Shown here: piece by piece, positions 1,801-54,029 of the stretch
Layout: every line of letters begins with the position of its first letter
Position numbering within the stretch: the stretch's first letter is position 1
NCBI GenBank assembly: GCA_020060565.1
Contig: JAGVAE010000003.1
Coordinates: 20,072-84,071, forward strand
DNA from: Candidatus Woesebacteria bacterium
GTDB lineage: Bacteria; Patescibacteriota; Microgenomatia; UBA8517
Direction of reading: 5' to 3'
DNA: 64,000 nt
The notes under the pieces: model-generated
What the model was told of the DNA's origin: nothing
Seen by the model: only the letters and a program-made list of their open reading frames with translations
The model's database searches: none
Translations under genes and position numbers: made by a program

Positions 1801-3914
1801 AACTTCACTTTGTTGGTATTGGGGGGAGTGGAATATCTGGTGTTGCGAGTTTAGCTGAAAAATTTGGCTACAATGTAACTGGTTGCGATTTAGAAATGGG
1901 TGGACACAGTGTAGACCATATTAAAGATGTTGACTTAGTAATCGTTACACCTGCAGTTTTTTATCAAAATAACAACCACCCAGAAATATTGGAAGCTAAA
2001 AAACAAAAAAAACTCATGACATGGGAGGAATTTTTGGGAAAGGTTTTATTAAAAGATAAAAAACTAATTTGTATTGCTGGAACTCACGGTAAATCCACCA
2101 CAACTGCAATGGCGGCAAAACTATTAATAGACAACGGATTTGATCCAGTTGTTGTGGTTGGGGCAAAAGTATCCGAGTGGAATGGTAACTCCCGATACGG
2201 TGAAGGTGAATATGCAGTTGTTGAGGCCGATGAATTCAACAATAACTTTCTTTTCTATAATCCTGACATTGCAATTATTAATAACATTGAATTTGACCAT
2301 CCAGATTTTTTCAAAAATGAAAAAGAGGTAAGAGCTAGTTTTGATAAATTTATAAAGAATTTAAAAGGAGAAAAAATATTAATAACTGAGAAGGACAGTC
2401 AAAACAAAAAATTCAATCTGAAACTCTTAGGTGAACACAATCAAAAAAATGCCAATATGGTTTACATATTGGGAAAGAAATTAGGAATTAGGGATGAGGA
2501 TATAGTTAGGTCTCTGGAATATTTTAAAGGAATCAGTAGAAGATTAGAATTAATTGTAGATAGAGGTGGAATTGAAATTTATGATGATTATGCACATCAC
2601 CCAACTGCTATTAAAACAACTTTTGAAGGTTTAAGGCGTGAGTATCCTAAGGCAAAAATATTAGCAATAGTTGAGCCGCATGGATATAAAAGAACAAAAG
2701 CACTTTTAAAAAACTATAATGGGGTTTTTGATAATGTAGATAGAGTGATTGTTGGTCCTATTTTTCCAGCTCGTGATAAAGTAGATAATTCGATTACGCC
2801 AGAATTAGTAGCCAAGGCATCAGGTCATAAAAACGCAAGTGGATTTAGTAGTTTTGAAGACGTCATTGAAGATTGTAAATTGATAATTGGTAATTACAAT
2901 GTAGTTGTCGTCATGGGTGCTGGAAAAAGTAATTATTGGGCAAAAGAAATTGTAGGACTATTGCCAGTTAGCTTTTCTGACATTACAACCTTTAGGATTG
3001 GAGGAAAAATAAAGAAATGTTTTGAAGTTAAAAATGAATCAGAAATTAGAGGCGCTTTAGATTATGCAGACAAAAACAATTTTCCTATTTTTATACTTGG
3101 AGGAGGTAGTGATATATTGGCTTCAGACAAAAAGTTTAATGGTGTTGTCATTAAATATACATCAAGTAGTATTTTAGTTGGAGAAGATGGAATAGTAACT
3201 GCTGACGCAGGTGCTAGTTGGGATAGATTAGTAGAGGAAACGGTAAAAAGTGATCTTGCGGGTTTGGAATGTCTTTCAGGTATTCCTGGAACGGTTGGAG
3301 CATCTCCCATTCAAAACATAGGGGCTTACGGTCAAGAACTTGCAGATACATTTATCAAATTAGTGGCATACGATATTGAAAAAAGAAAATTTGTAACTTT
3401 TGATAAGAAAGCTTGCAATTTTGGTTATAGAGAAAGTATTTTTAAACAACCGCAGTATTGGCAAAAATTCATAATTACAAAAGTTACTTTTAAACTCTCA
3501 AGATACACAGATACAGATATAACCCTAGAGAATATTAGAGAAGAAATATTAAGAGTTAGATCAGAAAAACTTGAAGATCCACAAAACATCCCGAACGCAG
3601 GATCCTTTTTCAAAAATCCAGTTATTGATTTACAACAAAAAGAAAAGATTATTTCAAAGTATCCAGGAGTTGTTATTTACTCTTTTGAAAATAGGTATAA
3701 AGTATCTGCGGCCTGGTTAATAGAAAGTTGTGGCTGGAAAGGAAAGGAATATAAATCAGCATCAGTTTCGTCTAAGCACGCTCTAATACTTATAAATAAA
3801 AATGGTAAAGCGAAGGCTGAAGATGTTTTAGAACTTTCTGACAAAATAATTTCTGATGTATATAAAAAGTTTGGAATAAAATTGGAGAGAGAAGTACAGT
3901 TAATAAATTTTTAA
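1797..3914 (+). CDS. murC: Bifunctional MurC-MurB fusion: UDP-N-acetylmuramate--L-alanine ligase (about 1797-2960) plus UDP-N-acetylenolpyruvoylglucosamine reductase (about 2970-3914)
   Basis: The N-terminus VGIGGSGISGVA...AGTHGKSTTT is a MurC-type Mur ligase. The C-terminal ~310 aa (FRIGGKI...LGGGSDIL...GLECLSGIPGTVGASPIQNIGAYG) is a MurB FAD-binding/reductase domain. The ATGA start overlaps the murE stop. Confidence 0.8.
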   Translation: MKLHFVGIGGSGISGVASLAEKFGYNVTGCDLEMGGHSVDHIKDVDLVIVTPAVFYQNNNHPEILEAKKQKKLMTWEEFLGKVLLKDKKLICIAGTHGKSTTTAMAAKLLIDNGFDPVVVVGAKVSEWNGNSRYGEGEYAVVEADEFNNNFLFYNPDIAIINNIEFDHPDFFKNEKEVRASFDKFIKNLKGEKILITEKDSQNKKFNLKLLGEHNQKNANMVYILGKKLGIRDEDIVRSLEYFKGISRRLELIVDRGGIEIYDDYAHHPTAIKTTFEGLRREYPKAKILAIVEPHGYKRTKALLKNYNGVFDNVDRVIVGPIFPARDKVDNSITPELVAKASGHKNASGFSSFEDVIEDCKLIIGNYNVVVVMGAGKSNYWAKEIVGLLPVSFSDITTFRIGGKIKKCFEVKNESEIRGALDYADKNNFPIFILGGGSDILASDKKFNGVVIKYTSSSILVGEDGIVTADAGASWDRLVEETVKSDLAGLECLSGIPGTVGASPIQNIGAYGQELADTFIKLVAYDIEKRKFVTFDKKACNFGYRESIFKQPQYWQKFIITKVTFKLSRYTDTDITLENIREEILRVRSEKLEDPQNIPNAGSFFKNPVIDLQQKEKIISKYPGVVIYSFENRYKVSAAWLIESCGWKGKEYKSASVSSKHALILINKNGKAKAEDVLELSDKIISDVYKKFGIKLEREVQLINF

Positions 3915-11731: not shown

Positions 11732-12384
11732 TAAAGAAATTTTTCTCATGGTTTGCAGTAGTTTTTGTTATGGTTTTAGTTTTATCTCCATTTTTAATAA
11801 CCCAGTTTTTGATTAAAGTAAAAATAGAATGCTTAAGTCAATTTGGACAATGTCCACTCGAAGTAAACTCTAAACTCGAAATTCTAAACTCTAAGAATTT
11901 ATGGCAGACAAAATCAGAAATTGCAAAAATTTTAAAAAAAGATTCATTGATTTCTGATTTTTCAATGCAATACAAGCTTCCTAATATTCTTCAAGTTAAT
12001 CTATTAGTAAAAAAGCCTATGTTTGCAATTAAAGATGCGTCATTGGGTAAAATATTTACGGTTGACGCGACTGGAAATATTCTTTCTGAAGTATCATCAA
12101 CCACGCTTCCTATGGTTGTACAAAATGACCAGATGATAAATACATACACACTTAATCTCATGCTTGGTATATATCAAATGTATCAAGTAGGATATGGAAC
12201 GATAGTAAATGATGCTTTGGTTGTTGATATACCTAATGGACTTAGAGTAATATTTCCAGTAAGAGGTGATGAACCTGAGGTTTTGCTTGGTGCATTAAGA
12301 TTAATATATTCGAAAGTTACGACAGAATATGCAGGGGTCTATTCTGAGATTGACATGAGGTACAAGAATCCTGTATTAAGGTAG
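11728..12384 (+). CDS. ftsQ: Cell division protein FtsQ/DivIB-like (POTRA)
   Basis: Single N-terminal TM segment and a small periplasmic domain; lies between murG and ftsA; starts with an ATGA overlap. Confidence 0.55.
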   Translation: MIKKFFSWFAVVFVMVLVLSPFLITQFLIKVKIECLSQFGQCPLEVNSKLEILNSKNLWQTKSEIAKILKKDSLISDFSMQYKLPNILQVNLLVKKPMFAIKDASLGKIFTVDATGNILSEVSSTTLPMVVQNDQMINTYTLNLMLGIYQMYQVGYGTIVNDALVVDIPNGLRVIFPVRGDEPEVLLGALRLIYSKVTTEYAGVYSEIDMRYKNPVLR

Positions 12385-12404
12385 TATTGTAAGTAAAAAG
12401 ACAT

Positions 12405-13670
12405 ATGACTAAATCACGAATTATTGCAGGAATTGAGTTGGGATCAAATAAAATTGCTACTTTAATTTCCCAAGTTGCGGTTGACCCCATTACAATGGAG
12501 ACTTCAATTAATATTATGGGTGCAGCTTCTTCTGAATCTCGAGGAATTAAAAAAGGACAGATAGTTGATATTGAAGATGCAGTTGAGGCAATAATCTCAT
12601 CGGTTGAAGCAGCTGAAAGAATGGCGGGATATAACCTTGAATCAGCCTATATTGCTTTGGGGGGAGCCCACATTCATTCACAAAACAGTCATGGTGTTGT
12701 TGCCATCTCAGAACCAAACGGTGAGATAAATCAAAATGATGTGGATCGTGCAATAGAGGCCGCATCAGCAGTATCCATGCCAACTTCTCGTGAGATCGTA
12801 CACGTTTTACCGAGAGAATATGTGGTTGATGGTGAAGCAGGGGTTCATGACCCAGTGGGCATGAATGGAGTAAGGTTGGAAGTTGACACACATATAGTAT
12901 CAGCGGGTGCATCAGCTATAAAGAACGTAAGAAAAGCGGTAAATGAAGTAGGAATTCAAATTGAAGATTTGGTTTTTTCAGGAATTGCCTCGGCAGAAGC
13001 AGTACTTTCACCAACAGAAAAAGAATTAGGGTGTGTTTTAATTGATATTGGTGGCGGAACAACTTCAATAGCTGCATATATTGATGGATCATTAAGTTAT
13101 TCAGGAGTAATCCCAGTGGGGGCAAAAAATGTAACCAATGATTTAGCAATTGGTCTTAGGGTTTCTTTAGAAACCGCAGAAAAAATAAAATTAGCACTAT
13201 CTTCTAAAAAGAAAGTAGAAGAGTCAGATGAAATGGATTTGGTAAGTCTTGGTGTAACTGAAGTAACTAAAATTTCAAGGAAAACTCTTTTGGAAGGAAT
13301 TATAAGACCGCGTATGAATGAAATTTTTACAATGGTTAGAATGGAGTTGGATAGGGAAGGACTTGCAAATAGAATTCCTTCAGGAGCGATAATCACAGGC
13401 GGTGGATCAGAAACCGCAGGAGCAGTTGAATCAGCAAAAAGAATGTTAAGTTTACCCGTAAGAGCAGGGATCCCAACAGGTGTAACAGGACTGATTGATG
13501 ATGTGATAAATCCATCTTTTTCTACATGTGTGGGACTTATTCTTTATGGTGCGCGCGATATACCTCAAAACGAAAACTTGACAAGATTTACAAAAAAGAT
13601 AAAACTACCAGGTGCGGCCAGTGGAATGTTTGGAAAAATAATTTCGTCAATTAAGGATTTATTGCCTTAG
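12405..13670 (+). CDS. ftsA: Cell division protein FtsA
   Basis: Actin-like ATPase fold (IAGIELGSNKI...; DIGGGTTSIAAY); immediately upstream of ftsZ. Confidence 0.85.
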   Translation: MTKSRIIAGIELGSNKIATLISQVAVDPITMETSINIMGAASSESRGIKKGQIVDIEDAVEAIISSVEAAERMAGYNLESAYIALGGAHIHSQNSHGVVAISEPNGEINQNDVDRAIEAASAVSMPTSREIVHVLPREYVVDGEAGVHDPVGMNGVRLEVDTHIVSAGASAIKNVRKAVNEVGIQIEDLVFSGIASAEAVLSPTEKELGCVLIDIGGGTTSIAAYIDGSLSYSGVIPVGAKNVTNDLAIGLRVSLETAEKIKLALSSKKKVEESDEMDLVSLGVTEVTKISRKTLLEGIIRPRMNEIFTMVRMELDREGLANRIPSGAIITGGGSETAGAVESAKRMLSLPVRAGIPTGVTGLIDDVINPSFSTCVGLILYGARDIPQNENLTRFTKKIKLPGAASGMFGKIISSIKDLLP

Positions 13671-20047: not shown

Positions 20048-20371
20048 ATGGCAAAACAAACACCTAGGAGCAAATACGCAGTAATTAGACTACAAGGAAA
20101 GCAGTACAAGGTTTCTGAGGGTGAGGAAATTTTGGTCGACAAAATGAACGACCTGAAAGTCACCCCCGAAGTTCTTTTGGTTGCCGATGGAGATAGTATA
20201 AAGGTGGGTAAACCACTTGTTAAAGATGCCAAAGTTAGCATCAAGATAGTTAAGGATTTTGAAAAAGGAGAGAAAATAGAGGTATATCACTTCAAAGCCA
20301 AAAGTAGGTATAAGAAACATACAGGTTTTCGCCCCCAATACACCAGAGTTTTGGTTGAAAAAATTGCTTAA
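20048..20371 (+). CDS. rplU: 50S ribosomal protein L21
   Basis: KYAVIRLQGKQYKVSEGEEILVDK...HTGFRPQYTRVLVEKI matches the L21 family. Confidence 0.85.
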   Translation: MAKQTPRSKYAVIRLQGKQYKVSEGEEILVDKMNDLKVTPEVLLVADGDSIKVGKPLVKDAKVSIKIVKDFEKGEKIEVYHFKAKSRYKKHTGFRPQYTRVLVEKIA

Positions 20372-21291
20372 CTTTCGCTTTTTCTAAAGTCCTTTATATC
20401 TTCGGGGCCGAATTTACCATCATTTTGAGATCCTGTACTTTTAACAATACCGATACACCTGGATAGTAAGGGGCAGTCTTTATGAAGGTTCTTGTTGCAG
20501 TATTTATTACCAATATGCCAAATAGTTTCTTGCAAGTATCTGGGATCAATCTTCCTTTCTTCACAAATTTTACTTAATTGAGGTACTAGTGTATTTACAC
20601 CTACTGCTTTTAAATTTCGCCTTTCCGTTAGAGAAAGAATGGCAGTTTGAAGGGCAATTCTTATAACCTGAAAATCTTGTGGAAAGCCAGACTTTTCAAT
20701 ATCATGAAATTTCCATAATCCGTGTTTATGAATCCACTGAATAGCAAGCTGAGCTAATTTAAAGTCATACCCCAAAAATGTTTTTGCCTCGATTTTTTTC
20801 TGGGTTTTTGCCTGATGATACAGATGTATTCTTTTTATAGATTCGTTGGCACTGTTATTACAGTCTATAAATAAGTTGATAATATTGTTTCCATATCTTC
20901 TGTTAAGGAGTTCTAGGTTGTACTTCCATTTTTTAACCCCATCAACAGCATATCCTGGAGGTCTAAAAAAGAGTGAACAGGATGACTTTACTTGTTGTTC
21001 TGGAGTTTGTGAAACAATATTGCCCATAAATAGCCAAGCATTTTCTTCTAAATCTTGGTTTATTAACCAATCAAAGGAGTCTTTTGTGCGTCCACCTCTT
21101 ATAAACATTGTGGTAAAAAATAGAGCCGTTGCAGCAAAGCCGTCAACATTGTGCAACGCTTCATAGTTCTTAAGTCGTTGAACAAACGGCTCTTCAGGAA
21201 AAGTGAGAGCATTTTTCTCTCTGTGAGATAGAGCAAGATCTATAACTTGATTGGTTCTATTTCTATTTATATTTAAAGCCTCGGCTGACAT
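20368..21291 (-). CDS. Hypothetical Cys-rich protein inserted antisense between rplU and rpmA (possible HhH-type glycosylase-like fold; weak)
   Basis: 307 aa with a C-terminal cluster C-x7-C-x5-C plus an upstream Cys (KICEER...KYCNKNLHKDCPLLSRC). An LKAVGVNTLVPQL segment looks helix-hairpin-helix-like. No firm family assignment. Confidence 0.35.
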   Translation of the reverse strand: MSAEALNINRNRTNQVIDLALSHREKNALTFPEEPFVQRLKNYEALHNVDGFAATALFFTTMFIRGGRTKDSFDWLINQDLEENAWLFMGNIVSQTPEQQVKSSCSLFFRPPGYAVDGVKKWKYNLELLNRRYGNNIINLFIDCNNSANESIKRIHLYHQAKTQKKIEAKTFLGYDFKLAQLAIQWIHKHGLWKFHDIEKSGFPQDFQVIRIALQTAILSLTERRNLKAVGVNTLVPQLSKICEERKIDPRYLQETIWHIGNKYCNKNLHKDCPLLSRCIGIVKSTGSQNDGKFGPEDIKDFRKSES

Positions 21292-21357
21292 GTGGAGAAT
21301 ATAACATCAATCCTAGATTTGTAAAAGATGTATATCAATCTATAACCTTCTGAGCTC

Positions 21358-24370: not shown

Positions 24371-25036
24371 ATGAAAAACAAACTAATATTTTTTGGGATT
24401 CTAATAGCTTTAATAAGTATAGTTCCTCTAACTATTTTACCAAATATAAATCTCTCATATGCCTTAAAGTTTCCTGTAGGGGTTGCGAGTTTAGCCATCA
24501 GGTTTTTAGGTCTTACTGCCTTTGTTTTAATGTTTTGGCAAGTTATGTTGGCTTCTAATATGGAGAAATGGATAAATAAACTGGGGGGATGGGTTTTTAA
24601 TTTTCATATTATAAACGGTATTATTATTTATTCACTGATATTTTTACATCTTTTAGCTCTTGTTCTTTTTAGGTATTTCTTAGGAATTGGGATGGATCCA
24701 ATTTTTGTTTTCCTGGGATTTTGTTTTTATTGTCAAACAAAATTGGATTTCTACTACACATTAGGAAGAATTGCTTTTTGGCTATTAACAGTAGGAGTAT
24801 TGGCTGGATTTTTTAGATCATTAAATCCATTTATGAAAGCAAACTGGAGAAAATTCCATGTACTTAATTATGTAACATTTTTAATTGTTGGAATCCATGG
24901 ATATTTATTAGGAACTGACTATCTGACACAGCCATTTTTCTACTTTTCCATAATCGCCTATCTATTGGTTCTATATACAATCATTCGCAAACTTCCCAAC
25001 CTTTTTAATACTTACAAAAAGTGGATAAATAGTTAA
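24371..25036 (+). CDS. Hypothetical polytopic membrane protein
   Basis: 221 aa with at least 5 hydrophobic helices. The annotated start sits only 6 nt after the tRNA, so the true start may be an internal Met. Confidence 0.4.
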   Translation: MKNKLIFFGILIALISIVPLTILPNINLSYALKFPVGVASLAIRFLGLTAFVLMFWQVMLASNMEKWINKLGGWVFNFHIINGIIIYSLIFLHLLALVLFRYFLGIGMDPIFVFLGFCFYCQTKLDFYYTLGRIAFWLLTVGVLAGFFRSLNPFMKANWRKFHVLNYVTFLIVGIHGYLLGTDYLTQPFFYFSIIAYLLVLYTIIRKLPNLFNTYKKWINS

Positions 25037-25037
25037 A

Positions 25038-27361
25038 TTATTTATGGAATTTAATCCAAAATCTCCATAAGTTAAACCAGAATTTGGGAAAACGTGGATA
25101 TTTATATTCTCTTATCTCACGTAGTGGATTTTTATTGATATTTTTGGAGTTAAACTCAATAATTTTGGGTTCTTGTGTAAGACCTCTAATTTTGTACTCA
25201 TTATATTCAAATTTTCCGTTTGCTAAAAACTGACCTATTATAAAAGTAGTAGTACTTGAAGTGGGGTTGATTTGTAATTGATAATCACCACTTATAGGAT
25301 CCATGATAGCAATCATTCCATTTTCGGAATTAATTACATGATTATTTTTGTCTGTTAGAGAAAAACTTCCAGGATAACCAACTAGAATCAAAGCAGATTT
25401 AGGTTCCTTGTAGGGAGGATCATTAATTCCAGGGGAGCCAAAAAATTTTAGAATTTTGTCTATTCCTTCATCTGAAGCAATTATTCCTGCATGAGACTGA
25501 TTTATTACTTCATTAGAAAAAGCACCTGGAATCTGTGCGCTTTCAACTAGCACAGTTCCATCACCGCTGTCGGAATATTCTTTTCCTACAGGTCTACCAT
25601 CTGGCCATCTAAAGTCACGAACAACGTTGATTGTTTTTAAAGTTGGGTTATTTGTTCCAGCCAAAGTGCCTACTTTTACATTCCAAAATGGAGTTACAAA
25701 ATTAGAAGGTAAATAATTATTCTTGGTCTTCATATCAGACACTGACTTAAGTTGCTTAGTTTTGTTATCTCTTAAATAATCATAAGTGGGAAGCATGTTT
25801 TGAGGGAATTGGGTGTGCCACAGTGATTAAGAAGTAATGTGGTTGCAATTTTTTGTACTAAATCATTTGTCCAGACCTCATGATTAACTATGGCTGGATA
25901 AACAAGGGTAGAGCCTTGATTTGGTGTTCCTACAGCAAGAAACTTTAAGGTCTTACCTCCATTTTGGCTTTCTATATAATTCCTTCCAATAAGCCCTCCC
26001 ATACTATGTCCAACAAGATTTATCTTTTCATCACCCAACACACTTGAATTTATTAGATCGTTTAATATTGAAGAATTGTCCCTAATATCTTTTCGCCAAT
26101 CATAATAAAAAGGAATAGGAGTCCAACCTTGTGTTGGTAAGATTGACAAAAGGGGATTATAAATGTCCTTTGCGTATGGAGCCAAAGTCCAACCACCACT
26201 ATACCCAGTATTTTTACAATTAATTAAAGCATCAACATTCCAACTAGCCCCAAGTCCTGGAATTACTACAACTTTAGTGACAGATGGAGGAGCAATGTCA
26301 TCATTAGTAATAACACAACTAATATTTTGTCCAGGCAAAAGTGTAACTGACTCTCCTAAACCACTTGGACAACCATCTCCTTCAATAGAAATAAAACTGT
26401 AACCATCAACTGAATTTTCATTAATAGTAATTGGTTCATTGGCTTTGATTTTTGTTTCAATTCCAGAAGTTACAAGATTGCCTCCCACACTTATACCAAA
26501 ATCGTTTGGTTCTAAAGTCCCGCCATTATCATTGATGACATTTTTTGTAAGAGTAATGGTTGGGACAATATCATCATTTATAATTGTGCAAACCTTAGTA
26601 TCGCCATCTGTAATAGTTTCAGAACAATCACCTTCAGTAGTTGTTGTATATCCTTCAGAAACTTCCTCGGTAACGGAATATGAACCAGCATCAAGATTTA
26701 CAATGGTTCCCGATTCCGAAGCTGTAAATGTTGGAGTTGAAACATTTGTTCCAGTAACGTTAATAGTAAAATCTTCAGCCTTAGCCCTTCCCCCATCATC
26801 ATTTATCACACGCTTAATAACTGTAAGCTCTGGTCTATTTATAGGAGCTTCGTATAAGACACCATCGTAAGAACAAATAACATTTTGAGTTTCTCCTGGA
26901 GGGTAAGCCGTAACCTTACTAAAGTTCGAAATATTTCCACTTAGATCGATACGGTAAATACCCCGTGGTATTGAATAAGTGGGAGGACTGTTTGGATAGT
27001 AAAAGAAAACAATGGCTGTATTTCCATCCCAGCCTACTACACCATTACCGACAAGACTCCAATTAAAATACGACCATCCTCCATTGTAGTCTGTGTACAA
27101 TGTGTTAAAACCTGTACTGTCCCAAGAACCACCAGGAGCTTGCCAATTGGTTATAGTCACACCTGAAACATAGAGGTTAATATTTGCTGGGTCGCCACCA
27201 TTGGTTTGTACTAAAACATCTGCGTGGTTCTGAGAAAAAGCTGCCTGATAGGTACAACTTGAGGCATATATTTTGTTTGTCGAGAAGAGAAACATGAACA
27301 GGAAAGTTACAACACTTAATATTCTAAGAAGAATTTTAGATACACCTCTCATGATATTCAT
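25038..27361 (-). pseudogene. Frameshift-split gene for a secreted prealbumin-like-repeat protein with a C-terminal alpha/beta-hydrolase (LCAT/PGAP1-like lipase) domain. ORF A is 25772-27361 and ORF B is 25038-25796, both on the minus strand.
   Basis: ORF A has a signal peptide and two approximately 60-aa repeats (VINDDGG...DF..; VINDNGG..PNDF..). It then carries the nucleophile elbow GHSMGG and stops. ORF B, in another frame, carries the matching acid SDSGDGTV and His SHAG of the same hydrolase fold. The ORF B frame opens only 10 codons upstream of its ATG. The break therefore lies within CCCTCAAAACATG, a homopolymer-rich stretch at about 25790-25830. Confidence 0.6.
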
Positions 27362-37820: not shown

Positions 37821-38095
37821 GGGCGGGATCGACGAGATTCGGACTCGCAACCTCTTCCGTGCGAAAAAATCTTCTTGTTTCCAAAAAGCTCGGACTATCT
37901 CATCACCCGCAGGGTGAAATTATCACCACCTTACGGGGCCAGGTATATAGTCTCTACACATTTACACTTTCGTGCTTTAGCTCGGGATTGCCATTTTAAA
38001 GGTTTCCCCGAATTAGCCTGGTTTTACATCCCGCATTACTGCGGGACGCTGCCACAATTGACAGGGAAGCGCTCTAGCCATTGAGCTACGACCCC
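37821..38095 (-). tRNA. Intron-containing tRNA; the insert has P/Q/R/S-like group I intron elements. Exons assemble to a 73-nt tRNA with an Asp-like (GUC) anticodon loop CTGT|CAC. Exon 1 is 38061-38095 and exon 2 is about 37824-37861.
   Basis: 5' exon GGGGTCGTAGCTCAATGGCTAGAGCGCTTCCCTGT gives the acceptor, D-arm and the 5' half of the anticodon stem CTTCC. 3' exon CACGGAAGAGGTTGCGAGTCCGAATCTCGTCGATCCCG supplies GGAAG pairing with CTTCC, a T-arm GCGAG-TCCGAAT-CTCGT, acceptor CGATCCC pairing with GGGGTCG, and discriminator G. A 199-nt insert separates them. Confidence 0.6.
37862..38060 (-). ncRNA. Candidate group I intron within the tRNA anticodon loop
   Basis: 199 nt. The 5' exon ends in U and the intron ends in G, with P1 CUGU/GCAG. 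P-like AAUGCGGGAUG pairs with Q-like CAAUCCCGAG (P4). R-like GUAGAGACUAUAUACC pairs with S-like GAGAUAGUCC (P7, GACUAU/AUAGUC). There is no internal ORF. Confidence 0.6.
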
Positions 38096-38177
38096 AATAA
38101 CAAAGTATTTTAACATAGACTACCTTACTTACCAAGCCTCAACAAAACATTTCAAACATAGACTTTATCTTATAGTT

Positions 38178-53394: not shown

Positions 53395-53632
53395 AATAGG
53401 TACAGTTACCCACTATTACGATAAAATTGGCGTAGCCATAATTGAACTTACCAGCACTCTTTCAGTTGGAGACAAAATAAAATTTGTTAGAAATGGAGAA
53501 GATTTATTTTCCGAAATTGTAGAATCTATTCAGGTTGAACACAAAAAACTAGATTCCGCTTCTAGCGGAGATGTGATAGGATTAAAAACTAATGAAGCGG
53601 TTAAAACTGGGGCGGAAGTCTTTAAAGAGTAA
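53387..53632 (+). CDS. Hypothetical small beta-barrel protein (EF-Tu domain-2-like pattern)
   Basis: 81 aa. The G..V..G.I..G.LSVGDKIKF...G.......V.S.......A..GD.IGLK pattern resembles a translation-factor domain II barrel. Confidence 0.35.
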   Translation: MFKIGTVTHYYDKIGVAIIELTSTLSVGDKIKFVRNGEDLFSEIVESIQVEHKKLDSASSGDVIGLKTNEAVKTGAEVFKE

Positions 53633-54029
53633 ATCCCGATCAAATATCGGTGTAAATTGGGACGAAGCTCCTGATATTGCAAAAAGATCTCTTAAATTAA
53701 TAACAGATCTTAAAATGGATTGGATTTTATTTGACAGATTATTCTTCTATAGATCAAACTACAGTAAGGCACGCGCATATGCCAGAACTTGGGGACTTCC
53801 AGCCCTTTGGCAAAGATCCCTTAACGTTGAACCAGGATATATTATTGAAGTTTTAGCAGAACATTTTGATAAATTAAACCAAAGAGAACAAGATAAAGTA
53901 ATTCTTCACGAGCTAACCCACATTCCCCATAACTTTTCAGGTGCACTAGTCCCTCATACACACAGAAAAAAGGGAAGTTTTCGTGATAAACTCAGACAAT
54001 TATATGAAGATTATCGTACTTCACGGTGA
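53592..54029 (+). CDS. Putative zinc metallopeptidase, SprT/YgjP (DUF45)-like
   Basis: HExxH region VILHELTHIPHNFSGALVPHTHRKKGSFRDKL. The start is uncertain: the ORF overlaps the preceding one by 40 nt, and the internal Met of MDWILFD is an alternative. Confidence 0.45.
   Translation: MKRLKLGRKSLKSKSRSNIGVNWDEAPDIAKRSLKLITDLKMDWILFDRLFFYRSNYSKARAYARTWGLPALWQRSLNVEPGYIIEVLAEHFDKLNQREQDKVILHELTHIPHNFSGALVPHTHRKKGSFRDKLRQLYEDYRTSR

Follow-up and report, generated by a model that had tools for sequence, protein, structure and literature searches.

A one-base frameshift splits an LCAT/LPLA2-like hydrolase gene in a Candidatus Woesebacteria contig

The split gene and its two reading frames

The stretch of DNA analysed here (64,000 nt, called the window below) belongs to contig JAGVAE010000003.1 of Candidatus Woesebacteria bacterium; its source is an uncultivated, ultra-small bacterium of the Microgenomates type from the candidate phyla radiation (CPR). 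On the minus strand of the window lie two open reading frames (ORFs), ORF A and ORF B (Table 1), which are in different frames and overlap by 25 nt, and which constitute one gene, not two. The gene encodes an alpha/beta-hydrolase related to lecithin:cholesterol acyltransferase (LCAT) and lysosomal phospholipase A2 (LPLA2), and it is interrupted within the hydrolase domain: the nucleophilic Ser is encoded in ORF A, the Asp and the His are encoded in ORF B, i.e. in the -1 frame, and the catalytic triad is not contained in any single uninterrupted frame. As written, the window copy is a disrupted one and not a functional LCAT-like family member. The initial annotation of this DNA had recognized the split, with the ORFs and their boundaries correctly placed; to this we add that the gene is encoded on the minus strand.

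The region in which both frames are open extends over 25772..25828 and includes CCCTCAAAACATG. According to the three-frame translation, the frame of ORF A terminates as ...LLLNHCGTPNSLKTCFPLMII, where the last eight residues, TCFPLMII, are out of frame and are followed by a TAA stop; the C-terminus of the truncated ORF A product is ...NSLKTCFPLMII. Upstream of the ATG of ORF B, its frame is open for exactly ten codons, in agreement with the earlier description, and reads as a stop, SLWHTQFPQN, and then MLPTYDYLRD. The transition from ORF A to ORF B corresponds to one missing DNA base or, equivalently, to a ribosomal shift by -1. Two details of the initial annotation have to be amended. ORF A was said to end right after the motif GHSMGG, but the motif occupies residues 451-456 and ORF A continues for another 73 residues, to residue 529; and the Asp motif, given as DGDGTV, is DSGDGTV in the actual sequence of ORF B. 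The His motif SHAG is indeed present in ORF B and contains His624.

Single-gene ancestry and the position of the missing base

The query for the homology searches was the C-terminal stretch of 414 residues that begins with the hydrolase domain, with one A restored in the run CTCAAAACATG, so that the query spans the break. It retrieved 183 homologues, among which the best full-length ones are 60-68% identical and cover 99-100% of the query in one chain; those with a named source come from Candidatus Woesebacteria and Microgenomates. In all close homologues with enough contig the break is spanned by one chain, and the Ser and Asp motifs occur in one chain in 92 of the 103 homologues of at least 480 aa. 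In an alignment of 50 sequences the H-S-x-G-G, G-D-G and His columns are invariant. The consensus of the orthologues at the junction is CG.P.S[FLI][KQ]N[LM]LPTY[DN]YL, which the junction of the repaired window protein, CGTPNSLKNMLPTYDYL, fits exactly; the peptide SLKNMLPTYDYLR would mark an intact or recoded product. Upon repair, the Pfam LCAT match extends across the junction, from residues 419-492 to residues 419-557, and its score increases from 25.0 to 28.1 bits. Against a profile built from 39 relatives (38 full-length orthologues and the protein P0121, described below), unrepaired ORF A reaches 345 bits and the sequence with one base repaired 801 bits, and for this reason the split is not a chance appearance. 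No paralogue of the gene was found within the window.

The comparison with orthologues, which had been proposed in the initial annotation, returned single uninterrupted genes. The contrary expectation, that the orthologues are also two separate genes, does not hold as a rule, with one exception that is split at a different site. This is a second syntenic orthologue, about 64% identical (L013, positions 3190..4987 of contig_60439, ENA ERZ25039515), which is also divided by a frameshift. Its break lies at about 3870-3885, upstream of GHSMGG, and may be real or an assembly error alike. A gene for an IS200-type Y1 transposase adjoins this split orthologue directly downstream.

The closest comparison is offered by a relative found through the database entries of the two halves. 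ORF B corresponds to entry P0013 and ORF A to P0050/P0122, all from one contig of 132,504 bp, and the 90% cluster of ORF B includes an intact protein of 771 aa, P0121, encoded on a Logan contig of 20.9 kb (L001, run SRR22388165). L001 and the window are syntenic on both sides of the gene, with methyltransferase and glycosyltransferase genes on one side and the genes for a 221-aa membrane protein, IMPDH, signal peptidase, ParB, L27 and L21 on the other, and their DNA is 82.6-86.8% identical over five aligned blocks of about 17 kb in total. Over the 1803 alignable columns of the lipase gene there is exactly one gap, of 1 nt, and it is in the window. At the junction L001 reads TCTTTTAAAAACCTTCTTCCT (S F K N L L P), with a run of five A (A5), where the window reads TCCCTCAAAACATGCTTCCC, with a run of four (A4); L001 shows TTTAAAAACC at the place of the missing base.

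Insertion of 1 nt anywhere from 25828 to 25772 yields a protein of 774 aa. Each 1-nt insertion that is possible between 25845 and 25771 was scored against the profile of 39 relatives. The scores peak at 799.7-801.4 bits for 25797-25806 and are lower on both sides, which places the missing base in or beside the A run 25798-25801 and within the bracket of 25790-25830, near CCCTCAAAACATG, that the initial annotation had indicated. The gap placement obtained with MAFFT, at 25814 in a CCC/CCCC run, was rejected, because its profile score is 5-6 bits below that of 25797-25806 and because it would remove the conserved Ser, hydrophobic and Lys residues of S[FLI]KN. For the repaired window gene compared with L001, the ratio of nonsynonymous to synonymous divergence (dN/dS, Nei-Gojobori) has the same value, 0.082, in the part of the hydrolase before the break and in the 253 codons after it, and over the 252 codons of ORF B there is no further stop or indel. 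The equal ratios and the intact ORF B imply that ORF B was under purifying selection during practically the whole divergence from L001, and the equality of the two sides implies that the break is very recent, absent from the organism, or bypassed. The two ORFs descend from a single gene, relative to which the window sequence carries a deletion of one nucleotide at a position determined to within about 5 nt, with no decay downstream of it.

Origin of the frameshift

We propose, with a probability of about 0.5, that the frameshift is genuine and very recent, and that the window contains a nascent pseudogene or a null allele that dominates the sampled population; a real mutation is slightly preferred over an error of the consensus, and it is from the features discussed below that we infer the lesion to be real. 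The ancestral gene would have coded for a Sec-exported surface or secreted enzyme of 774 residues, comprising in this order a signal peptide, an N-terminal beta domain, two prealbumin-like stalk domains, an LCAT/LPLA2-type hydrolase, a C-terminal beta-sandwich and an aromatic, membrane-seeking tail, with Ser453, Asp601 and His624 as the presumed triad of the hydrolase. One A would have been lost from an A5 run, now A4 at 25798..25801 of the minus strand, so that translation would depart from the frame after ...NSLK and terminate eight codons on. The exported, truncated product would keep the nucleophile and lack the Asp, the His and everything downstream, and hence it should be catalytically dead, while ORF B, which has no export signal, could not rejoin the exported product of ORF A.

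The assembly does not appear to be prone to indels. The window has a G+C content of 35.8% and contains 1074, 469, 168, 38 and 15 homopolymers of length 4, 5, 6, 7 and 8, respectively, yet in spite of its 690 homopolymers of at least 5 nt no other checked gene is split; the long ORFs of the window (up to 1162 aa) are intact, and no other broken gene was seen across the roughly 17 kb of synteny with L001. Two overlapping ORF pairs were considered as further split genes and dismissed, as they are distinct genes: a Mur ligase and a racemase (3917-5161/5085-5921), and a metallopeptidase and a holA-like gene (53592-54029/53983-54642). The abundance of homopolymers, the distinctness of these pairs and the unbroken synteny are together the grounds for regarding the assembly as reliable in this respect. 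A collapse of the prealbumin repeats was likewise rejected as the cause of a misassembly, since the identity between the copies is only 33% and the break is more than 450 nt away from them.

Several observations weigh against a real mutation. No feature of the sequence tells a real deletion from an indel of the consensus or the assembly, ORF B is perfectly preserved, as both an artefact and a very young mutation would leave it, and the lesion is located at a homopolymer, homopolymers being the commonest site of sequencing indels. Scans of metagenome contigs of the Joint Genome Institute (JGI) and of GTDB genomes for the exact A4/A5 patterns did not find a second, strain-level copy of the junction, and protein-guided scans for a second copy of the locus gave only relatives at no more than 62% identity. 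It is quite conceivable that the organism possesses an intact A5 allele and a working enzyme of 774 aa, and that one A was dropped from the deposited contig in sequencing or assembly. Such an error would account for a lesion that consists of a single homopolymer base, for the identical dN/dS on both sides and the lack of a second lesion in ORF B, and for the conservation and synteny of the gene in relatives. However, the run is only 4-5 nt long, and the 221 longer runs (6-8 nt) in 64 kb are not accompanied by any split among the checked ORF pairs, which argues for a low rate of indel errors; moreover, young frameshift pseudogenes are common in bacterial genomes. With young frameshift pseudogenes and consensus indels at short homopolymers of bacterial genomes and MAGs the window gene shares a 1-nt change of an A run in an otherwise intact, conserved gene with no secondary lesions, and it has no feature that would set it apart from this class.

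Programmed or leaky -1 recoding, by slippage of tRNA-Lys on CUC-AAA-A or by transcriptional slippage at the A run, would restore some full-length enzyme and would explain why ORF B is fully preserved; in addition, if the Lys tRNA slipped by -1 from AAA to CAA and AAC were read next, the outcome would be precisely the ancestral ...SLKNMLP... It is nevertheless very improbable. When the codon pairs of the overlap 25772-25828 are read one by one, no 0-frame X XXY YYZ heptamer is found, and a segment of 131 nt, which starts about 30 nt before the site and ends about 100 nt after it, folds more weakly than shuffled sequences: its minimum free energy is -9.8 kcal/mol, while the shuffled versions average -14 kcal/mol (z +1.53), and 190 of the 200 are at least as stable. 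Nor is the shift conserved, the orthologues, including the 85%-identical relative, being in frame at the site. The site resembles dnaX-type programmed -1 frameshifting in the continuation in the -1 frame and in the Lys AAA codon, but it is devoid of an A AAA AAG-type heptamer, of a stimulatory structure and of conservation, and on these grounds the programmed frameshift that had been listed in the initial annotation can be largely discounted. A run of four A is also well below the length of tracts for which transcriptional slippage or phase variation is known, and with A4 in the window and A5 in L001 it falls short of a phase-variable contingency tract, which is typically at least 7 nt long. 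It would be a considerable surprise if the A4 allele were not dead and if low-level tRNA-Lys slippage at CUC-AAA-A, or stuttering of RNA polymerase, yielded a little full-length surface lipase; were this the case, the leaky A4 allele would provide a CPR episymbiont with a down-tuned dose of an enzyme that attacks the host membrane. A weaker variant is that recurrent selection for loss of the enzyme underlies the independent frameshifts in the window and in L013.

One could also imagine a functional split, in which each of the two ORFs would be translated on its own, ORF B from its ATG through coupling to the stop of ORF A, and they would act as two subunits or in new, separate roles. The ATG of ORF B comes immediately after the shift, within the 25-nt overlap with ORF A, and the stop of ORF A is 22 nt downstream. 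Shine-Dalgarno motifs are rare in the genome, so their lack before ORF B does not exclude initiation; as such a motif precedes only 6 of the 36 long ORFs of the window (with starts taken mechanically), the test for a ribosome-binding site of ORF B is uninformative. On the other hand, this ATG encodes a position at which all members of the family have M or L (KN[LM]LPTY), and therefore it is not a start that evolved as such. Judging from the translations, ORF B has neither a signal peptide nor a hydrophobic N-terminus, whereas ORF A has a typical signal peptide, which would put the two parts of the triad into different compartments. Furthermore, the break falls within a core helix of one folded domain in the model of the orthologue P0005 (see below), and no orthologue is split at the same site. 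A functional split thus has very little to recommend it, and a genuine, very recent frameshift remains our preferred explanation. Most of the 36 starts are preceded by A/T-rich sequence, a pattern that suggests mostly Shine-Dalgarno-independent initiation in this genome.

Domain architecture, neighbouring genes and significance

Table 1. Features of the split gene (positions in the window; residue numbers of the repaired protein unless P0005 is named)
Feature	Position	Strand	Remarks
Whole ancestral gene	25038..27361	-	774 aa after restoration of one base; once repaired, alignable over its entire length with single-chain orthologues
ORF A	25772..27361	-	529 aa; signal peptide, N-terminal domain, two SpaA_2 and the N-terminal half of the hydrolase with Ser453
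ORF B	25038..25796	-	252 aa; C-terminal half of the hydrolase with Asp601 and His624, C-terminal beta-sandwich, aromatic tail
Site of the missing base	25797..25806	-	A4 run at 25798..25801 (CTCAAAACATG); restoration to A5 gives ...CGTPNSLKNMLPTYDYL, the family consensus
Putative signal peptide	27263..27361	-	signal-peptide-like N-terminus MNIMRGVSKILLRILSVVTFLFMFLFSTNKIYA/SS, as read from the translation
N-terminal beta-rich domain	26846..27262	-	33% identical to the L001 orthologue; strands at residues 28-165 of the P0005 model
Two tandem prealbumin-like SpaA_2 domains (PF19403)	26285..26833	-	residues 177-265 and 266-359
LCAT/LPLA2-like alpha/beta-hydrolase	25428..26281	-	residues 361-645; frameshift between K521 and N522
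Codon of the nucleophile Ser453 (GHSMGG)	26003..26005	-	residue invariant in 50 orthologues
Codon of the catalytic Asp601 (SGDGTV)	25560..25562	-	ORF B frame; G-D-G invariant in 50 orthologues
Codon of the catalytic His624 (QSHAG)	25491..25493	-	ORF B frame; residue invariant in 50 orthologues
C-terminal beta-sandwich	25146..25397	-	residues 656-739; strands at residues 563-655 of the P0005 model
Trp/Phe-rich basic C-terminal tail FPKFWFNLWRFWIKFHK	25041..25091	-	conserved in orthologues; helical in the P0005 model (residues 666-680)

In ORF A, SpaA_2 is matched in two stretches with 56.9 bits (cut-off 25), and the two copies are 33% identical to each other (E 2e-9). The match of the LCAT family (PF02450) to ORF A alone reaches 25.0 bits (gathering cut-off 21), ORF B alone has no match in Pfam, and the match to the repaired protein is partial, covering profile positions 91-236 of 392 with 28.1 bits. 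GHSMGG at residues 451-456 conforms to the G-x-S-x-G nucleophile elbow. Two Cys residues that are invariant in the alignment of 50 sequences (in NCK and HCG) correspond to C288 and C421 of P0005. The tail, with the consensus FPKFWFxFWxFWxKFHK, forms a conserved basic helix after the sandwich; it is probably an interfacial membrane-binding helix, or it may be a sorting signal. The N-terminal modules differ among the orthologues, with SpaA_2, PF06439 or Kelch repeats, and Pro/Thr-rich linkers are visible. In particular, the N-terminal domain of the window protein is 33% identical to its counterpart in L001 (9912..10424), whereas the hydrolase part is 88% identical, and the N-terminal domain looks like a fast-evolving or swapped targeting domain.

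For the analysis of the fold we used the AlphaFold2 (AF2) model of the intact orthologue P0005, not a model of the window protein. Its mean pLDDT (predicted local distance difference test) is 84.7, with values above 90 in the hydrolase region. The equivalent of the break is K428/N429, inside the helix 425-430, for which pLDDT is above 95 and which lies between the nucleophile strand (Ser360) and the strands carrying Asp508 and His530. In a Foldseek comparison with the PDB, the best match is the Bacillus licheniformis lipase BlEst2 (6WPX, E 9.6e-11, 527 columns); LCAT (4X96) and lysosomal phospholipase A2 (4X90-4X97) follow with E values of 3e-10 to 2e-9 and template modeling (TM) scores, normalized to the target, of 0.46-0.52, and Family I bacterial lipases are lower in the list. 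A search of the PDB with the sequence only gave weak matches to Bacillus LipA around the nucleophile (E 0.003).

With the LCAT/LPLA2 family (PF02450; PDB 4X90-4X97, 4X96, 5TXF) the window family shares the alpha/beta-hydrolase fold, the GHSMGG-type elbow, the GDGTV Asp motif and a downstream His, but its sequence identity to the solved structures is only 16-18%. Unlike them, the window protein has additional N-terminal beta and prealbumin domains, a C-terminal beta-sandwich and an aromatic tail, and it is bacterial (CPR), predicted to be exported, and interrupted by a frameshift. In BlEst2 (6WPX/6WPY) and EstA3 of T. tengcongensis, which are secreted bacterial lipases, the hydrolase is followed by a packed C-terminal beta-sandwich, and the orthologue model has the same arrangement; however, the identity is 11-16%, and the window family is distinguished by the LCAT-type GDGTV, by other N-terminal modules and by the Trp/Phe-rich tail. 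The beta-sandwich of the BlEst2/EstA3 type has been reported to be inhibitory (title of 6WPX) or to be required for long-chain acyl substrates (PMC10816834).

The surroundings of the gene differ from L001 in two places. In the window the stops of the lipase gene and of the convergent gene for the 221-aa membrane protein are adjacent (25036..25038), whereas in L001 these genes are separated by about 800 bp with an ORF of 140 aa (12228..13044). Conversely, the window has about 970 bp between rplU (L21, 20048..20371, plus strand) and the L27 gene, at 20372..21340, that are absent from L001 and may represent an inserted element; this stretch contains, on the opposite strand, an ORF of 307 aa (20368..21291) without a match in Pfam or PHROG. 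Elsewhere in the window, the gene at 53592..54029 (plus strand) matches a "putative phage metallopeptidase" (PF18894, E 1.4e-19) and has no match in PHROG; it is located directly upstream of the holA-like gene, which matches the C-terminal domain of the DNA polymerase III delta subunit, and overlaps it. At 37822..38096 (minus strand) there is a tRNA gene with an internal group I intron (37871..38070; RF00028, 71.7 bits compared with a gathering score of 50), which is missed by ARAGORN with default settings and is called as tRNA-Asp(gtc) if introns are allowed. The putative splice sites place a U at the end of the 5' exon (...CTTCCCTGT/) and a G at the end of the intron (...TTCG/CACGGAAG...), and the product spliced at these sites folds as tRNA-Asp(GUC).

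The event described here, in which a single base shifts the frame of a conserved gene from a known superfamily, is ordinary and not a new mechanism. Its practical consequence is that two "hypothetical proteins" merit annotation as one frameshifted gene, or as a single gene of 774 aa if the reads show A5. The ancestral product was presumably an exported, membrane-interfacial lipase, phospholipase or acyltransferase, and its likely substrate would be lipids from the membranes of a host or neighbour, given that CPR bacteria have been reported to be incapable of membrane lipid synthesis (PMC7242380). The family to which it belongs is a widespread, uncharacterised group of predicted exported LCAT/LPLA2-like lipases of Microgenomates that carry exchangeable N-terminal modules and a membrane-seeking tail, and it is a plausible tool for the acquisition of lipids from hosts by CPR bacteria. 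If the frameshift is real, the sampled population has just lost this lipase.

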